From the NCBI GenBank assembly GCA_963728205.1, contig CAVSIV010000006.1, positions 1,216,001-1,280,000 of the forward strand: a DNA stretch of 64,000 bases. Direction: 5' to 3'. The translations under genes were made by a program, and so were the position numbers. The DNA is from an uncultured Chloroflexia bacterium. GTDB lineage: Bacteria > Chloroflexota > Dehalococcoidia > UBA2979. Shown here in pieces: positions 1 to 5,342 of this stretch; positions within the stretch are counted from its first letter, which is position 1; each line of letters begins with the position of its first letter. The notes beneath the pieces are model-generated. The model ran no database searches. It saw nothing but the letters and a program-made list of their open reading frames with translations, and was not told where the DNA came from.

Positions 1-445
1 GCGGCACCTGCCCGAGCTCGTGGACCCCATCGCGGACGGTCGGTTCGACCTGGCATACGGGTCGCGCCTGCACCCGCGCTCGCAGACCAGCCGCGGGCTG
101 AAGCGCGAGGTCACCTCGCGCGGGTACGTCCTCGTGCTCCGCTACCTCGCGGGCCTGCGCGTCAGCGACGCCCAGTGCGGATTCAAGGCGATCAGCCGGG
201 AGGCCGCCCGCGCACTCGTGCCGCTCGTGCGCGACACGCAGTGGTTCTTCGACTCCGAGCTGCTGCTGGTCGCGCAGCGCAACGGCTACCGGATGCTGGA
301 GGTGCCTGTGCACTGGGTGGAAGACCGCGACACGCGGGTCCACGTGCTGCGCACGGCGATGGAGGATCTGCGCGGCATCTGGCGCATGCGGCGGAGCGGC
401 GTGCCCATCGTCGCCGGACGCGGCGCCGACGGGCCGCGCCCGTAA
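1..445 (+). CDS. Glycosyltransferase family 2 (Dol-P-Man/Glc synthase-like), 5'-truncated by window edge
   Basis: Motifs 'DLAYGSR', 'SDAQCGFKA', 'WFFDSELL' and 'EVPVHW' are typical of the DPM/DPG-synthase-like GT2 C-terminal half. The frame is open back to the window start. Confidence 0.85.
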   Translation, partial: RHLPELVDPIADGRFDLAYGSRLHPRSQTSRGLKREVTSRGYVLVLRYLAGLRVSDAQCGFKAISREAARALVPLVRDTQWFFDSELLLVAQRNGYRMLEVPVHWVEDRDTRVHVLRTAMEDLRGIWRMRRSGVPIVAGRGADGPRP

Positions 446-506
446 TGCGACAAGCAGACGCGCGCGTCCTCGGGGCGGGCGGCGATTCCGCCCACCGGCT
501 GATTCC

Positions 507-536
507 TTGACCCTAGCCGATCGGCGTAGATAGCAT
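507..536 (+). promoter_or_regulatory. Sigma70-type promoter of the Rieske/cytochrome b operon
   Basis: TTGACC (507-512), 18-nt spacer, TAGCAT (531-536). Confidence 0.55.
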
Positions 537-608
537 CGGCCGCGGCCGCGCCGGGGTCGCCCTGTCCGCGGATCCCGCCACGCCGAGTGTCCTCGAAGGG
601 TGAAGCCG

Positions 609-710
609 ATGATTGGTGAGGGCGAAGGCCTCGAGCTTCTTGGCGTGTTCATCACCTTCATGACCGGGCTCGCCATCATGGTGCTGCTCGGGAAGTGGTG
701 GGAAGCCTGA
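609..710 (+). CDS. 33-aa single-transmembrane microprotein (candidate small subunit of the cytochrome b6-type complex)
   Basis: ATG 609 to TGA 710 encodes MIGEGEGLELLGVFITFMTGLAIMVLLGKWWEA. It has a GAAGGGTG RBS-like motif, GC3-rich codons and one hydrophobic helix, and is the first ORF after the promoter. Confidence 0.65.
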   Translation: MIGEGEGLELLGVFITFMTGLAIMVLLGKWWEA

Positions 711-789
711 GCGTCTGCGCGTACCGGCAGCGCGGCCTTGCGCCGTCGGGTCCGCACGTCGACCGGTGTACGGAAATTAGGAACTGCTA

Positions 790-1545
790 ATGGCGACGAC
801 TGAGCGACCCGAACACCGCGCCCTGGGGGATCGCCTCTACGACGGCATCTTCCACAACCGGGTGTGGCAGTCGATCTTCCGCTCGGGGTACCCGAACACC
901 CCGCGCAACCAGATGCTCGCCGTCGCCACCAACGTCTTCCTGCACCTGCACCCGACGCGCATCCACCGCACGCACGTCAAGATCACGCACACGTTCTGCC
1001 TTGGCGGGCTGTCGTTCTTCCTGTTCCTCGGCCTGACCATTACCGGCGTGCTCCTGATGTTCTATTACGTGCCGTCTACCGACCGCGCGTACACGGACAT
1101 CCTCGCGTTGCAGAACGACGTCCGCTTCGGCCAGCTGATGCGCAACCTGCACCGCTGGATGGCCCACGGCATGGTGCTGCTGGTGCTCATGCACATGATG
1201 CGGGTGTTCTACACCGGCGCGTACAAGCCGCCTCGCGAGTTCAACTGGGTCGTGGGCGTCGTGCTGCTGGTGATCACGCTGCTGCTCTCGTTCACCGGGT
1301 ACCTGCTCCCGTGGGACCAGCTGGCCATCTGGGCCATCACGGTCGGCACGAACATGGTCGGGTCGGCGCCGATCCTCGGGCCGGCAAACCGGTTCGTCCT
1401 GGTCGGTGGCTTCCAGGTGGGGCAGAATGCGCTCATCCGCTTCTACACCCTGCACGTGATCGGACTCCCGCTGCTCGCAGCGGTGTTCATGACGGTGCAC
1501 TTCTGGCGCATTCGCCGCGACGGCGGCCTCGCGCGGCCCCTGTAA
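790..1545 (+). CDS. petB: Cytochrome b6-like subunit (N-terminal half of split cytochrome b)
   Basis: Heme ligands in '[16 protein letters not shown]' and '[17 protein letters not shown]', 'GYLLPWDQ', and 'FCLGG' (heme ci-attachment Cys). Confidence 0.92.
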
Positions 1546-1566
1546 GCCGAGGTCGGGAGGACACTC

Positions 1567-2442
1567 ATGGCAGTCGCACGCTCGGTTCCGCCTGAGCCCG
1601 TCTCGCAGGCCGTGCGCGGTCGTCAGCGCCGCCAGCGCGAAGAAGAGCTGCTGGTATGGCCGGATCTCGTCTTCATCGAGTTCATCGCCGCGGTCGTGTT
1701 CACGATCTGCCTCACGATCCTCGCGGTGCTCGTGAACGCGGTGCTCCTGGACCAGGCGAACCCGAACGTCACGCCGAACCCGTCGAAGGCGCCGTGGTAC
1801 TTCCTGAATCTGCAGGAGATGCTGCTGCACATGAACCCGGCGCTCGCCGGCGTGGTCGTGCCGACCATCGCCCTCGTGCTCCTCGGCGCCATCCCCTACG
1901 TCGACCGGTCGCACGAAGGCCAGGGCGAGTGGTGGGGCACCCCGCGGTCCAAGCAGATCACGGTCTTCATGACCGTGGTCTCACCGATCATCACAGTGGT
2001 CCTCATCCTCTTCGACTCGTCGAAGCACGTGCAGCTCTACGAGATCATCACCGGCAAGACCTGGCCCACGCGGCTGAGCTGGCTCAGCAGCGTGCGGTCG
2101 ATTCAGACCGATCTCCCGTGGCCGGACTGGACGAAACACATCCCGCTCGGCTCGAAGGTGCTGCGCACGGACCTGATCGGGCTGCCGAAGATCAACCTCG
2201 ACATCAACTTCCCGGCCGTGCTCGTCGAGCAGATCATCCCGGTCACTTTGATGGTGGGCTTCCCGGCGATCCTCTGCCTGGTCGCCTGGCGCATCCGCCT
2301 GTGCCGGAACCGGCGCGATTTCATGATCCTGCTCTTCACCGGGTTCATCGCGGTGTACGTGACGATGACCATCGTCGGGACGTTCTTCCGGGGCCACAGC
2401 CAGACGCTGGTGCCGTACAGCATCTTCTCGACGGAAGGCTGA
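1567..2442 (+). CDS. petD: Cytochrome b subunit IV-like (C-terminal half of split cytochrome b), extended
   Basis: 'WPDLV' start motif and 'ANPNVTPNPSKAPWYF' (PEWY-equivalent Qo loop), several TM helices, GGGAGG RBS. Confidence 0.85.
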   Translation: MAVARSVPPEPVSQAVRGRQRRQREEELLVWPDLVFIEFIAAVVFTICLTILAVLVNAVLLDQANPNVTPNPSKAPWYFLNLQEMLLHMNPALAGVVVPTIALVLLGAIPYVDRSHEGQGEWWGTPRSKQITVFMTVVSPIITVVLILFDSSKHVQLYEIITGKTWPTRLSWLSSVRSIQTDLPWPDWTKHIPLGSKVLRTDLIGLPKINLDINFPAVLVEQIIPVTLMVGFPAILCLVAWRIRLCRNRRDFMILLFTGFIAVYVTMTIVGTFFRGHSQTLVPYSIFSTEG

Positions 2443-2488
2443 GCGAGGCCCGAGGAGCAAGACGCCACCGGCGGAGAGGTAAGACGGA

Positions 2489-3154
2489 GTGACGAACGAA
2501 ACGCAGACCACGGAAGAGCGGCCGGAGGCGGCGCCGACCGACGCCTGGCGCGCGGCGATCGCCTCGCGCAAGACGCAGATCGCGCGCACCGAGGGCGTGC
2601 CGAGCGTGCAGGCGGCGCCGATCGAAGCGGACCTCTCGCGCCGGCGCTTCATCCGGGCATCGTTCTTCAGCGGACTCGGCGTGACGCTGCTGGGAAGCGT
2701 CGGGCTCTTCGTCGACTACTTCTATCCTCGGCACGTGAAGGGCTTCGGCGGCCCCGTCCCGGCCGGGAAGGTGTCGGACTACCCGCAGGGTGCGGACCCG
2801 GTGCACAACCTGGACGGTCAGTTCTGGATCGCGAACCTCGACCCGAAGGAGACGCGCAAGGGCGGCACGGGCGGCGCCGAGGGCTTCCTGGCGCTGTGGC
2901 ACAAGTGTCCGCACCTCGGCTGCACGGTGCCCTGGCGCCCGGAGTTCGAGTTCGAGGGCGACAAGGGCTGGTACCGCTGCCCCTGCCACGGCTCGACCTA
3001 CACGAAGGCAGGCGTCCGCGTCTACGGTCCGGCACCGCATGGCATGGACGTGATGACGGTCGAGATCGACAAGTCCGGGAACATCACGGTCCAGACGGGC
3101 GACATCACGATCGGTGGCCCGAACAACCCGAAACTCGCCGTGAAACCAGCGTGA
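2489..3154 (+). CDS. petC: Rieske [2Fe-2S] subunit, Tat-exported
   Basis: CPHLGC and CPCHGSTY boxes; twin-arginine motif SRRRFI followed by a TM helix. Confidence 0.95.
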   Translation: MTNETQTTEERPEAAPTDAWRAAIASRKTQIARTEGVPSVQAAPIEADLSRRRFIRASFFSGLGVTLLGSVGLFVDYFYPRHVKGFGGPVPAGKVSDYPQGADPVHNLDGQFWIANLDPKETRKGGTGGAEGFLALWHKCPHLGCTVPWRPEFEFEGDKGWYRCPCHGSTYTKAGVRVYGPAPHGMDVMTVEIDKSGNITVQTGDITIGGPNNPKLAVKPA

Positions 3155-3200
3155 TCGCACGCGTCTCCCGGGACACTGACTTCAGCAGATCGGCGGCTAC

Positions 3201-4589
3201 ATGAACACGAGCAAGCAAGTCAACGCGATGATCGGGTTCCTGTTCCTCGCGTTTCTCGTGTTCGCCGCCTACTACGCATACGAACCGCACCGCGAAGCGC
3301 AGGCCACGCAGACGCAGCAGGACGTGTTTGCCGAGCGCGGCGCCACGCTGTTCGTGAAGAACTGCCGCACGTGTCACGGCCTCGACGGCAACGGCCCGCT
3401 CGAGGGCGGCGTCGGACCGCAGCTCAACACGCCTGCGTTCGTGATCCTGCAGCCGGACAACAAGTTCGGCCTGCCGCCGACCTCCGCCGGAGTGACGAAG
3501 CAGATCACGGACTTCCTCACCGAGACCATCGCGTGCGGCCGCGCCAACACCTTCATGCCCACATGGGCGCAGTCAAACGGCGGAACGCTCTCCGCGATCC
3601 AGGTCCAGTACATCGTCAGCATGATCACGCAGGGTCGCTGGGACCTCGTGAAGTCGATCGGCGAGGCGACGGACGCGGAGACGGGGCAGACCGCCAAGGA
3701 CATCGTCCAGAGCGACCCGTCGAAGCTGTCTGTCAACACGAACCACTGCGGGCAGTTCACCGCCGACTACGTCTCGGAGCTGCGCAAGCGCGACCCGTTC
3801 CACCCGAACGCCGCGACGGCGACGCCGAGCCCGACGGCGACCGCTACCCCGGCGGCGCCGAGCGGACCGGTCGCCGGGAAGATGGCCGTCACCGAGAAGG
3901 AATTCTCGGTCTCGGTTGACCAGTCGAGCATTGCGGCGGGCAACGTCGAGTTCGACGTGAAGAACGCCGGCTCGATCGTGCACGACATTCGCATCATCAA
4001 GACGGACCTCGCGCCGGACAAGCTACCGGTGGCCGGCGGCCTGGTGGACGAGTCTCAGGTCGACGTGGTCGGCAAGATCGACACCGTGAGCCCGGGATTG
4101 ACGCAGACCGTCAACGTCCAGCTGGAGCCCGGCAAGTACGTGATCATCTGCAACGTGCCCGGGCACTACCAGCTCGGCATGCGTACCGGCTTCACGGTCA
4201 CGGCCGCGACGGGCGGCGGCTCCGCGACTCCGTCGCCGTCCGGGACGGCGAGCCAGGCAGCGACGCTGGCCGTCACCGAGAAGGAGTTCTCGATCTCCCT
4301 CGGCCAGGCGAGCGTGGCCGCAGGTGACGTGACGCTCGACGTCAAGAACGCGGGCGCGATCGCCCACGACATCCGGGTCATCAAGACCGACCTCGCGCCG
4401 GACAAGCTGCCCGTGGCGGGCGGGCAGGTGGACGAGAGCCAGGTCGACGTGGTCGGTAAGATCGACACCGTGAAGCCCGGGAGCTCTCAGCAACTCCAGG
4501 TCAAGCTGCAGCCGGGGCACTACGTGATCATCTGCAACGTCCCCGGGCACTACCAGCTCGGCATGCACACCGAGTTCACGGTGCAATAG
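3201..4589 (+). CDS. Membrane-anchored cytochrome c fused to two cupredoxin (auracyanin/sulfocyanin-like) domains
   Basis: N-terminal TM helix, CRTCH heme site with distal 'FMP' Met, a T/P/A linker, then two domains each with 'HDIR' and 'CNVPGHYQLGM' (C-x4-H-x4-M type-1 Cu loop). Confidence 0.88.
   Translation: MNTSKQVNAMIGFLFLAFLVFAAYYAYEPHREAQATQTQQDVFAERGATLFVKNCRTCHGLDGNGPLEGGVGPQLNTPAFVILQPDNKFGLPPTSAGVTKQITDFLTETIACGRANTFMPTWAQSNGGTLSAIQVQYIVSMITQGRWDLVKSIGEATDAETGQTAKDIVQSDPSKLSVNTNHCGQFTADYVSELRKRDPFHPNAATATPSPTATATPAAPSGPVAGKMAVTEKEFSVSVDQSSIAAGNVEFDVKNAGSIVHDIRIIKTDLAPDKLPVAGGLVDESQVDVVGKIDTVSPGLTQTVNVQLEPGKYVIICNVPGHYQLGMRTGFTVTAATGGGSATPSPSGTASQAATLAVTEKEFSISLGQASVAAGDVTLDVKNAGAIAHDIRVIKTDLAPDKLPVAGGQVDESQVDVVGKIDTVKPGSSQQLQVKLQPGHYVIICNVPGHYQLGMHTEFTVQ
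3885..4583 (+). repeat. Intragenic tandem duplication of a 315-nt cupredoxin domain (3885-4199 and 4269-4583)
   Basis: Two 105-aa copies, 82/105 identical by hand alignment. Confidence 0.95.
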
Positions 4590-4614
4590 CGGCGGACGTG
4601 CAATAGCGGCGGAC
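4581..4614 (+). repeat. Perfect 17-bp tandem duplication spanning the stop codon
   Basis: GTGCAATAGCGGCGGAC at 4581-4597 and 4598-4614. Confidence 0.95.
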
Positions 4615-4683
4615 GCGCACGAGAACGATTCGCGGGCTCGCCTGGCGGCGGGTGGCAGCGCGCAGCACGAGGGGGTTGGATCG

Positions 4684-4803
4684 ATGGCAGCAACGACCGG
4701 GAAGCGATACCGCTGTCCGAACTGCGGCGCGGAGTTCATCGTGACGCGCGGGTCGGACGAGGGCGAGCTCCGCTGCGGCGACACGCCGCTCGAGCAGCTG
4801 TAG
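4684..4803 (+). CDS. 39-aa desulforedoxin/zinc-ribbon-like microprotein
   Basis: MAATTGKRYRCPNCGAEFIVTRGSDEGELRCGDTPLEQL. It has a GAGGGGG RBS and a YxCxxCG...LxCG pattern like desulforedoxin. Confidence 0.75.
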   Translation: MAATTGKRYRCPNCGAEFIVTRGSDEGELRCGDTPLEQL

Positions 4804-4822
4804 GCAGCAGGGGGACGCCGAT

Positions 4823-4966
4823 ATGGCCGTGGCACTCGGTAAGCGCTACAAGGACGAGCAGACCGGCATCGAGCTGCTCTGCATCAAGCCGGGCGACTGC
4901 AACCTCAACGTCGACGGGCGCGGCATGGAGGAGCTCCAGCCGAAGGTGCTGCCGTCCGCCGACTAA
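4823..4966 (+). CDS. 47-aa microprotein, paralog of the preceding one, with C-terminal 'KVLPSAD' tail
   Basis: MAVALGKRYKDEQTGIELLCIKPGDCNLNVDGRGMEELQPKVLPSAD. It has an AGGGGGA RBS and shares the GKRY..G.E...G.L pattern with 4684-4803. Confidence 0.75.
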   Translation: MAVALGKRYKDEQTGIELLCIKPGDCNLNVDGRGMEELQPKVLPSAD

Positions 4967-5028
4967 GCCCGTCGCCCGGCTGGCGAGCGTTTCTCGCTCG
5001 CAGGTCGGCCGCGGGGACACCGGCGCGT

Positions 5029-5057
5029 TTGACGTGCCGGTGAACGTTTCCTAGCAT
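5029..5057 (+). promoter_or_regulatory. Sigma70 promoter for rpsU
   Basis: TTGACG (5029-5034), 17-nt spacer, TAGCAT (5052-5057). Confidence 0.6.
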
Positions 5058-5132
5058 GAATGTTCGCGTCACGCTGCGCATCAGTTGCGCGGACGCGTCA
5101 CAATGCGTGCACGTTGAGGATGGTGATTCGAT

Positions 5133-5342
5133 TTGTCGGAAGTCTACGTCGGGGAATCGGAATCGCTGGACGCGGCACTGCGCCGGTTCAACAAGCGCGT
5201 GCAGGCCGACGGGATTCTGACCGACGTCCGACGGCACGAGTACTACGAGAAGCCGTCGGAGCGACGCAAGAAGAAGGAAGCCTCGCGCCGCCGCAAGCTG
5301 CGGAAGGCGCTGCTCAAGCAGAAGCAGCGACGGGAGCTCTAG
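5133..5342 (+). CDS. rpsU: 30S ribosomal protein bS21
   Basis: '[12 protein letters not shown]', '[16 protein letters not shown]'; TTG start. Confidence 0.95.

Follow-up and report, generated by a model that had tools for sequence, protein, structure and literature searches.

Positions 790–4589 of the 64,000-nucleotide stretch analysed here, referred to as the window (positions 1,216,001–1,280,000 of contig CAVSIV010000006.1, assembly GCA_963728205.1), encode a Rieske/cytochrome b complex whose predicted electron outlet is a single polypeptide, in which a membrane-anchored haem c domain is followed by two cupredoxin domains. Complex III usually passes electrons to a free carrier. The complex of the window is probably the housekeeping complex III of an aerobic bacterium of the Dehalococcoidia, a quinol oxidoreductase of the APWY clade with a tethered, duplicated cupredoxin as the carrier and a caa3 oxidase as the acceptor. 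Among related loci, the anchor and the proximal haem were constant, and the distal redox domain proved to be interchangeable. Two cupredoxins are not the general plan of the family; they go back to one lineage-specific duplication.

The genome is a 4.1-Mb assembly of six contigs (89% complete, 5.6% contamination) from an uncultured soil Chloroflexota of the class Dehalococcoidia; the G+C content was approximately 66–76%. Four open reading frames (ORFs) of the same direction occupy the region on the plus strand, with intergenic gaps of 21, 46, and 46 nucleotides, in the order cytochrome b6, subunit IV, Rieske protein, and cytochrome c–cupredoxin–cupredoxin. An earlier note, made from the sequence alone, had placed the Rieske gene downstream of the cytochrome b genes, and the ORFs were found in these positions. 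The genes and the domains of the fusion protein are as follows, in coordinates of the window:

790–1545, plus strand: cytochrome b6-type subunit, 251 residues, with FCLGG (Cys70) and four His ligands
1567–2442, plus strand: extended subunit IV, 291 residues, with APWY at residue 75 and five predicted helices
2489–3154, plus strand: Rieske iron–sulfur subunit, 221 residues, with an RRRF twin-arginine translocation (TAT) motif, CPHLGC, and CPCHGSTY
3201–4589, plus strand: membrane-anchored monohaem cytochrome c with two cupredoxins, 462 residues
3219–3275, plus strand: N-terminal membrane anchor of the fusion protein, residues 7–25, by hydropathy
3318–3794, plus strand: haem c domain, approximately residues 40–198, with CRTCH at 55–59 and Met119
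3795–3884, plus strand: linker 1, T/P/A-rich by sequence; predicted local distance difference test (pLDDT) score below 50 at residues 205–221
3885–4199, plus strand: cupredoxin 1, residues 229–333, with His261, Cys317, His322, and Met327
4200–4268, plus strand: linker 2, G/S/T/P/A-rich; pLDDT below 50 at residues 339–352
4269–4583, plus strand: cupredoxin 2, residues 357–461, the duplicated copy, whose ligands match those of cupredoxin 1

The region was compared with the best 80 of 119 loci encoding a relative, taken as one genome per species and all belonging to metagenome-assembled genomes titled Dehalococcoidia, Chloroflexota or similar (hereafter, the 80 related loci), and with 24 other genomes of the same family. 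In addition, a census of the fusion protein covered 120 homologues among the matches listed.

The fusion protein matched the SoxE cupredoxin family of Pfam (PF06525, 7.7e-09, 35.6 bits against a cut-off of 21) and, in its haem domain, Cytochrom_C (PF00034, 5.3e-05, above the cut-off); Cytochrome_CBB3 (PF13442, 9.1e-06) stayed just under its 27-bit cut-off with 26.4 bits. Two C-x4-H-x4-M motifs start at residues 317 and 445. Across 24 aligned homologues, the haem ligands C55, C58, H59, and M119 were invariant, and the copper ligands H261, C317, H322, and M327 were retained in all 24 proteins. Cys112 and Cys183 of the haem domain were invariant as well and may form a disulfide. The AlphaFold model built on the same alignment showed residues 3–54 as one long helix and both cupredoxins as beta-strands (beta-sandwich), with block-mean pLDDT values mostly of 71–97 across the three domains and a dip to 53–62 in the haem domain. 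The linkers are about 27 and 20 residues long. Cupredoxin 2 found its best solved match in 6kol_A (E 1.6e-05), a “Blue (Type 1) copper domain protein” that is presumably a Roseiflexus auracyanin. A Foldseek search with the whole model gave two-cupredoxin proteins a probability of 1.00, and the proteins returned were only two-domain laccases with a high root-mean-square deviation (rmsd). Thus, the subunit described in the earlier note was recovered in all its parts: a membrane helix at residues 7–25 with one CxxCH haem (CRTCH at 55), two type-1 copper domains that each hold the full His/Cys/His/Met set and are predicted to bind copper, and T/P/A linkers whose low pLDDT agrees with their proposed flexibility.

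The organization of the operon was conserved among the relatives. A Rieske gene lay directly upstream of the fusion-type gene in all 80 related loci, and a b6 gene lay upstream in 76, the other four loci being cut; in the 24 same-family genomes, b6 was found approximately 1.7–2.8 kb upstream of the fusion gene in every case. The distal module, on the other hand, varied: 58 of the 80 loci carried a second class-I haem c, 18 carried one cupredoxin, three were cut, and one had neither motif, and the form with two cupredoxins was absent from the best 80 of the 119 genome loci. On a tree of b6, Rieske, and haem domain sequences (72 rows, after eight loci were dropped as cut or incomplete), the type of distal module changes eight to nine times, and at least seven of these changes are forced by starred branches of a quick LG+G4 search. 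Because haem c and cupredoxin exchange in the distal position, the cupredoxin would do the job of the carrier haem domain. The tethered carrier proposed in the earlier note is therefore the best reading of the fusion, since 58 of the 80 relatives have a second haem c in the same position.

The census of homologues gave a similar picture at the protein level. A haem c with one cupredoxin, in proteins of approximately 330–430 residues, accounted for 61 of the 120, and two haem c motifs without a cupredoxin for 37. The remaining proteins were 12 long forms (677–770 residues) with a repeat-rich middle and one cupredoxin, seven cupredoxin-only proteins with one to four domains, one haem-only fragment, and the two proteins with two cupredoxins, namely the window protein and P0002 from a JGI metagenome, which are 78% identical. 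In the long forms (P0076, P0090, and ten others), a stretch of about 400 residues separates the haem domain from the cupredoxin; it contains many RGVDGTxAAxH-like repeats and has no Pfam match. The haem-free proteins P0008, P0009, and P0109 consist of two to four tandem cupredoxins of the fusion's family joined by T/P/A-rich linkers, and the N-terminus of P0008 is hydrophobic and resembles a signal or an anchor. In a phylum-wide sample of 251 genomes, a haem domain and a cupredoxin in one match at E <= 1e-12 were found in no genome other than the window's own. The ESM Atlas pointed to possible clusters that combine a cytochrome c with a cupredoxin in Thermomicrobiota, Actinomycetota, and Acidobacteriota, which are leads only.

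In a phylogenetic analysis of the cupredoxin domains, those of the window protein and of P0002, four in all, fell into a single clade (support 99), in which the first domains group together (94) and the second domains group together (90). This topology points to a single duplication in the common ancestor of the two proteins, after the split from the single-domain forms. In the three genomes of the same genus, the protein has one cupredoxin, and the matches end at residues 336–361. An assembly artefact was rejected as the source of the repeat: the DNA of the two copies is only 80% identical, and a metagenome protein of independent origin is built in the same way. The two window copies are 78% identical as proteins, with a synonymous divergence (dS) of 0.52, a nonsynonymous divergence (dN) of 0.155, and a dN/dS ratio of 0.30, and all four copper ligands are retained in all four copies. 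Judged by its substitution pattern, the second cupredoxin is kept under purifying selection and is not decaying. A few differences between the first and the second domain, such as GMR/GMH next to the Met ligand and PGKY/PGHY, are fixed in both lineages and hint at tuning.

The second cupredoxin might also be a redundant duplicate, the working unit being a cytochrome c with one cupredoxin and the extra copy serving perhaps for dosage. Its rarity among the homologues and loci, the single copy in the three same-genus genomes, and the 78% identity of the window copies fit this explanation. However, the duplication is older than the divergence of two lineages that now show 78% protein identity, the values of dS and dN/dS and the ligands kept in four copies argue for a maintained function, and a few differences, GMR/GMH and PGKY/PGHY among them, are fixed between the domains in both lineages. 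Chains of several cupredoxins also recur in the lineage, with four domains in P0008 and P0009 and three cupredoxins on the CoxIV of P0063. We therefore consider redundancy unlikely.

The membrane part of the complex was assigned by profile and structure-based searches. The b6 ORF matched Cytochrome_B (PF00033, 1.7e-43), and in a phmmer search of solved chains cytochrome b6 was the best match (E 2e-48, compared with 1e-29 for long cytochromes b). Cys70 of the FCLGG motif aligned with Cys35 of b6, which holds haem ci, and the His ligands had 13 residues between His121 and His135 in helix B and 14 between His222 and His237 in helix D. The b6 sequence was 82–94% identical across all 24 same-family genomes. 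Subunit IV matched Cytochrom_B_C (PF00032, 1.5e-07), with b6f subunit IV as the best solved match (E 2e-04). Its Qo motif is APWY and not PEWY, although it aligns with the PEWY of b6f subunit IV (1vf5_B). The hydropathy profile had five peaks instead of three, the two extra ones at residues 223–241 and 252–270, and the full length of the subunit was conserved among the relatives in the 80 loci. The Rieske ORF matched PF00355 (1.6e-06), and its best solved match was 9rk4, a chain whose name follows anammox annotation style. Its CPCHGSTY motif gives an S–Y signature; we take the S and Y of this motif to be the residues meant by the Rieske S/Y potential rule. No cytochrome f family of Pfam had a match in the cluster.

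The earlier note had called the complex b6f-like, and this description held in part. The split of cytochrome b into b6 and subunit IV was confirmed by the matches of the adjacent genes to PF00033 and PF00032; the cysteine of FCLGG proved to be in the place of the haem-ci Cys, although binding of haem ci itself is predicted; and the 14-residue spacing of helix D was reproduced in the alignment to b6. The likeness does not extend to the APWY motif, the five-helix subunit IV, and the lack of a cytochrome f. These last three features place the complex, provisionally, in the APWY clade described by Kao and Hunte (2014, PMC4122944), which the available part of that paper defines as split cytochromes b, often with CxGG. 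As listed there, its members occur in Chloroflexi, delta-proteobacteria, Nitrospirales, Planctomycetes, and some Actinobacteria, and their Rieske proteins have mid-plus to high potential and an S–Y or S–F signature; the CxGG motif of the clade is mostly WCMGG, compared with FCLGG in the window (PMC4122944). The same part of the paper states that no APWY complex has been characterised and suggests reverse operation (Kao and Hunte, 2014; PMC4122944).

The NCBIfam model ExtP (NF040969), from a selenite/tellurite operon of Geobacter, gave the b6 ORF 291.6 bits against a cut-off of 290, which it passes by 1.6 bits, and this marginal score is consistent with placement in the APWY clade. The partner model ExtQ (NF040970) failed, with 52.6 bits against a cut-off of 150, and the gene context lent no support to a role in selenite or tellurite reduction. 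Automatic pipelines may nevertheless name the b6 ORF a “selenite/tellurite reduction operon b-type cytochrome,” which would be misleading.

The search for heme-copper oxidases and nitrite reductases recommended in the earlier note yielded four A-type oxidases and one NirK in the window's genome. Three of the oxidase loci adjoin a long cytochrome b of their own; in two of them it is a cytochrome b–cytochrome c fusion, and the remaining one has ctaE/qcrC/qcrB together with ctaD and ctaF in an actinobacterial-style cluster. The single oxidase locus that lacks an adjoining cytochrome b, at 616–620 kb of contig C1, encodes CoxII–cytochrome c, CoxI, CoxIII, CoxIV–cupredoxin, and CtaG, and cytochrome c maturation genes adjoin it. 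The CoxIV–cupredoxin fusion (COX4_pro; L014:11806–12552, G000:C1:619805–620548) has a cupredoxin that shares 58–59% identity with domain 2 of the fusion protein of the window, and its full-length form was found in four of 41 genomes, those of the window species and of its three relatives in the genus. In P0063, a relative from a metagenome, CoxIV is joined to three cupredoxins.

Within the family, 23 of the 24 genomes had a single cytochrome b match, of the b6 type. COX1 was likewise found in 23 of 24, the miss being a 77%-complete genome, and CoxIV adjoins COX1 in same-family genomes. Because most genomes of the family carry one cytochrome b, COX1, and CoxIV, the window complex and the C1-type caa3 oxidase are, by gene content, the conserved core chain of the family. 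The most likely acceptor is thus probably this family-conserved caa3-type oxidase, and NirK is a possible second one. The idea of the earlier note that the fusion perhaps serves two acceptors gained no direct support from the sequences, in which the two copper domains are 78% identical; the four A-type oxidases and NirK are candidates for such a role. The nirK gene (G000:C2:296466–297638, plus strand) encodes an intact two-domain protein of 390 residues with a TAT-like signal and no fused carrier (profile score 345.9 bits, cut-off 296.3). No NosZ above the cut-off was found in the genome, the sole matches coming from the CuA-like tails of CoxII and from NirK. The presence of MenD, with no MqnA found in the genome, makes menaquinone the likely quinone.

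Several further observations concern the accessory chains. The two cytochrome b–cytochrome c loci (L015, G000:C2:34000–50000; L016, G000:C2:243000–259000) have the cytochrome c at the C-terminus. The actinobacterial-style cluster (L017, G000:C6:1820000–1838000), located on the window's contig, encodes CoxIII, COX1, a long cytochrome b, a cytochrome c with two haems, and an actinobacterial-type Cyt_c_ox_IV (PF12270, 148.6 bits); this is possibly an accessory chain acquired by transfer, and the assembly has a contamination estimate of 5.6%. Counting the window, cytochrome b-type loci number four in the genome, and every one of them adjoins an A-type oxidase or is matched to one; a Rieske gene was confirmed only in the window. 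The nirK gene is followed by a gene for 495 residues whose N-terminal part looks SCO1/SenC-like by eye. A separate cupredoxin (L018) has a lipoprotein-like N-terminus and is apparently lipoprotein-anchored.

Taken together, these data suggest the following mechanism, in which the direction of electron flow and the partners are inferred. Quinol, probably menaquinol, would be oxidised at the APWY-type Qo site, and one electron would pass through the Rieske cluster to the membrane-anchored haem c, which would take the role of cytochrome f or c1. From there, the electron would go to a blue-copper cupredoxin that swings on its flexible linker to the acceptor, acting as the mobile carrier that elsewhere is a free cytochrome c, plastocyanin, or auracyanin. 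In the window species, the chain would run from haem to copper to copper on one polypeptide, where the second cupredoxin most likely gives the tether a longer reach or serves as an additional relay; copper binding by both domains is inferred from their ligands. The acceptor would be the caa3 oxidase, whose CoxII has a haem c of its own and whose CoxIV, in the window's genus, has a cupredoxin, with NirK as a possible second.

Several points weigh against this reading. The double cupredoxin is rare (2 of the 120 listed homologues and none of the 80 genome loci) and therefore cannot be essential to the design. The fused CoxIV is limited to 4 of 41 genomes, and a copper-to-copper hand-over would therefore be at most a genus-level feature, and the choice of caa3 as the partner comes from co-occurrence and paralogy only. 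The stars on the quick module-exchange tree carry less weight than a careful search would give them. The S–Y signature predicts a high-potential Rieske protein and MenD a low-potential menaquinone, a pairing whose energetics would be unusual. Finally, the available part of Kao and Hunte (2014, PMC4122944) proposes the APWY motif as a mark of reverse-running complexes.

If the complex ran in reverse, the cupredoxins and haem c would take electrons from a high-potential donor on the periplasmic side, and the proton-motive force would push them onto menaquinone. The suggestion made for APWY complexes in the available part of PMC4122944 (Kao and Hunte, 2014) is in line with the APWY motif combined with the high-potential S–Y Rieske signature. 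The presence of MenD without a detected MqnA, the Geobacter-type ExtP model that was just passed (291.6 against 290), and the anammox-style name of the best solved Rieske match, 9rk4, also speak for it. However, 23 of the 24 same-family genomes have no cytochrome b match besides this b6, 23 of 24 have an A-type oxidase, and the cluster has no obvious gene for a high-potential donor enzyme. If the family has no Alternative Complex III, which was not searched for, its aerobes need the complex to run forward. Reverse operation is thus quite improbable in our view.

A role of the cupredoxins in copper handling (CopI/EfeO-like) or in a laccase-like multicopper oxidase, without electron shuttling, was suggested by weak NCBIfam matches (EfeO, 77.4 bits; CopI, 36 bits) and by the two-domain laccases at the top of the Foldseek ranks, but it is very hard to sustain, as the scores are far under the cut-offs of 270 and 280, neither domain has the HxH/HCH trinuclear motifs (ICNVPGH stands at the Cys, with one upstream His each), the Foldseek superpositions (rmsd 11–13 A, template modelling score 0.2–0.3) show only two cupredoxin folds, and the domain occupies the position of the relatives' haem c carrier within a complex III operon.

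The proposed forward-running complex III with a tethered carrier shares features with several known systems. With b6f and plastocyanin it has in common the split b6 and subunit IV, the haem-ci Cys, the 13/14 spacing of the His ligands, the Rieske protein, and a type-1 copper outlet. It differs from them in the APWY motif, in the five-helix subunit IV, and in an anchored class-I-like haem c that replaces cytochrome f; the copper protein is covalently fused and doubled, and the setting is respiratory and not photosynthetic. In QcrC, the second haem stands in for the free carrier. The dihaem QcrC of the actinobacterial bcc complex and the heliobacterial–firmicute b6c complex thus resemble the fusion in that a distal redox domain replaces a free carrier, and their dihaem layout occurs on the same N-terminal domain in 58 of the 80 relatives. 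Unlike in QcrC, the distal haem is replaced by one cupredoxin, or by two in the window species, and the QcrC model matched the fusion weakly (28 bits against a cut-off of 200).

In the SoxM supercomplex, the sulfocyanin SoxE links the Rieske/cytochrome b module to a haem-copper oxidase. The match of the window cupredoxins to the SoxE family PF06525 above the cut-off is a point of likeness. SoxM of Sulfolobus, whose composition is given as SoxMEFGHI in the available part of PMC4122944, is archaeal, however, and lacks c-type haem; the sulfocyanin there forms a subunit of its own, with one domain, within a fixed supercomplex. Haloarchaea have a Rieske/cytochrome b cluster with a type-1 copper gene, halocyanin, the presumed acceptor (Baymann et al., 2012; PMC3509893, available part). 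Like the window complex, this cluster combines a split cytochrome b, a high-potential-type Rieske protein with menaquinone, and a copper protein in the cluster, and the mismatch between a high-potential Rieske protein and menaquinone was raised for haloarchaea too in the same part of that paper (Baymann et al., 2012; PMC3509893). In contrast to the fusion, the halocyanin is separate and without haem c, the haloarchaeal cytochrome b is described there without the haem-ci Cys (PMC3509893), and the lineage is another one.

Carriers joined to enzymes are known as well. Copper nitrite reductases with a tethered cytochrome c or cupredoxin are described in the available part of PMC13324648, and other cytochrome/cupredoxin fusions of Chloroflexi occur in nitrite reductases (PMC8756737). 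As in these enzymes, in caa3 oxidases, and in the genome's own CoxII–cytochrome c fusions, a linker attaches the carrier to the enzyme that it serves; unlike in caa3 oxidases and tethered nitrite reductases, the carrier sits on the donor complex, and in the window's genus also on oxidase subunit IV. The auracyanins of Chloroflexus and Roseiflexus are membrane-attached type-1 copper carriers from the same phylum, but they are separate proteins that work with Alternative Complex III.

Thus, a copper carrier gene in Rieske/cytochrome b clusters (haloarchaea, SoxM) and fusions of carriers to enzymes are already known. What is new is that the donor complex carries a haem c–cupredoxin subunit, that this subunit has repeatedly been exchanged with a dihaem form, that its copper domains occur in tandem, and that CoxIV has a cupredoxin to match. 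The earlier note had known of no characterised complex with this architecture, and a full-text literature search, with subscription journals and supplements outside its scope, agreed with it, as it returned no paper on a cytochrome c–cupredoxin subunit of a Rieske/cytochrome b complex; PMC5826079 records bc complexes by presence or absence only.

The conserved cluster reaches past positions 790–4589 in both directions. The additional features are:

507–536, plus strand: sigma-70-like promoter match, TTGACC-18-TAGCAT, 9/12, a consensus match only
600–710, plus strand: one-helix ORF, candidate small subunit, 36 residues from GTG; relatives start at a Met that gives 33 residues
4684–4803, plus strand: zinc-ribbon-like ORF (CxxC...C) of 39 residues, in 77 of the 80 loci with 62–92% identity
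4823–4966, plus strand: ORF of 47 residues with very high conservation, in 77 of the 80 loci with 74–100% identity

In 74 of the 80 related loci, the ORF at 600–710 has a counterpart immediately before b6 and in the same orientation (48–85% identity), and all six loci without a match are cut upstream. Its predicted product has a single hydrophobic helix and ends in ...LLGKWWEA; it matches no Pfam family and may be a small subunit comparable to PetG/L/M/N. The two downstream ORFs follow the fusion gene together, the three misses being cut loci. The 39-residue protein is zinc-ribbon- or desulforedoxin-like, with every Pfam match under the cut-off; the 47-residue protein has no Pfam match and is weakly similar, as a weak paralogue, to the former. 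Because neither has a signal or a helix, both would be cytoplasmic.

The neighbouring genes are unrelated housekeeping genes, namely those of S21, YqeY, a 7TM-HD protein, and a PurQ-like amidotransferase, and the ORF upstream of the cluster is a 147-residue fragment with no Pfam match. The scan of positions 300–5300 gave two promoter-like sites, compared with 0.3 expected, the second at 5029–5057, before rpsU; none was located within the operon. The same scan returned no terminator-like site on the plus strand and was uninformative in this respect. Among public sequencing runs, six DNA runs with small shares of matching words were listed, and no RNA run.

For the APWY group, the complex offers a simpler biochemical entry than the anammox or Geobacter versions. 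The soluble haem–Cu–Cu part has about 420 residues, and haem-to-copper and copper-to-copper transfer should be directly measurable in it. A broader proposal, which we put forward tentatively and regard as rather doubtful at present, is that a protein-bound copper relay, formed by the tandem cupredoxins of complex III and the cupredoxin on CoxIV of the caa3 oxidase, replaces the diffusible carrier in this lineage. The swaps between haem c and cupredoxin would then be an evolutionary dial that follows iron and copper supply or the oxygen regime, and chains of two to four cupredoxins would be comparable to multihaem cytochromes. The built-in carrier, swapped repeatedly between iron (haem c) and copper on one anchor, is in itself a natural experiment on what a carrier requires. 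As what appears to be the sole Rieske/cytochrome b complex of most aerobes of the family, in which Alternative Complex III was not searched for, the complex argues that some APWY complexes run forward.

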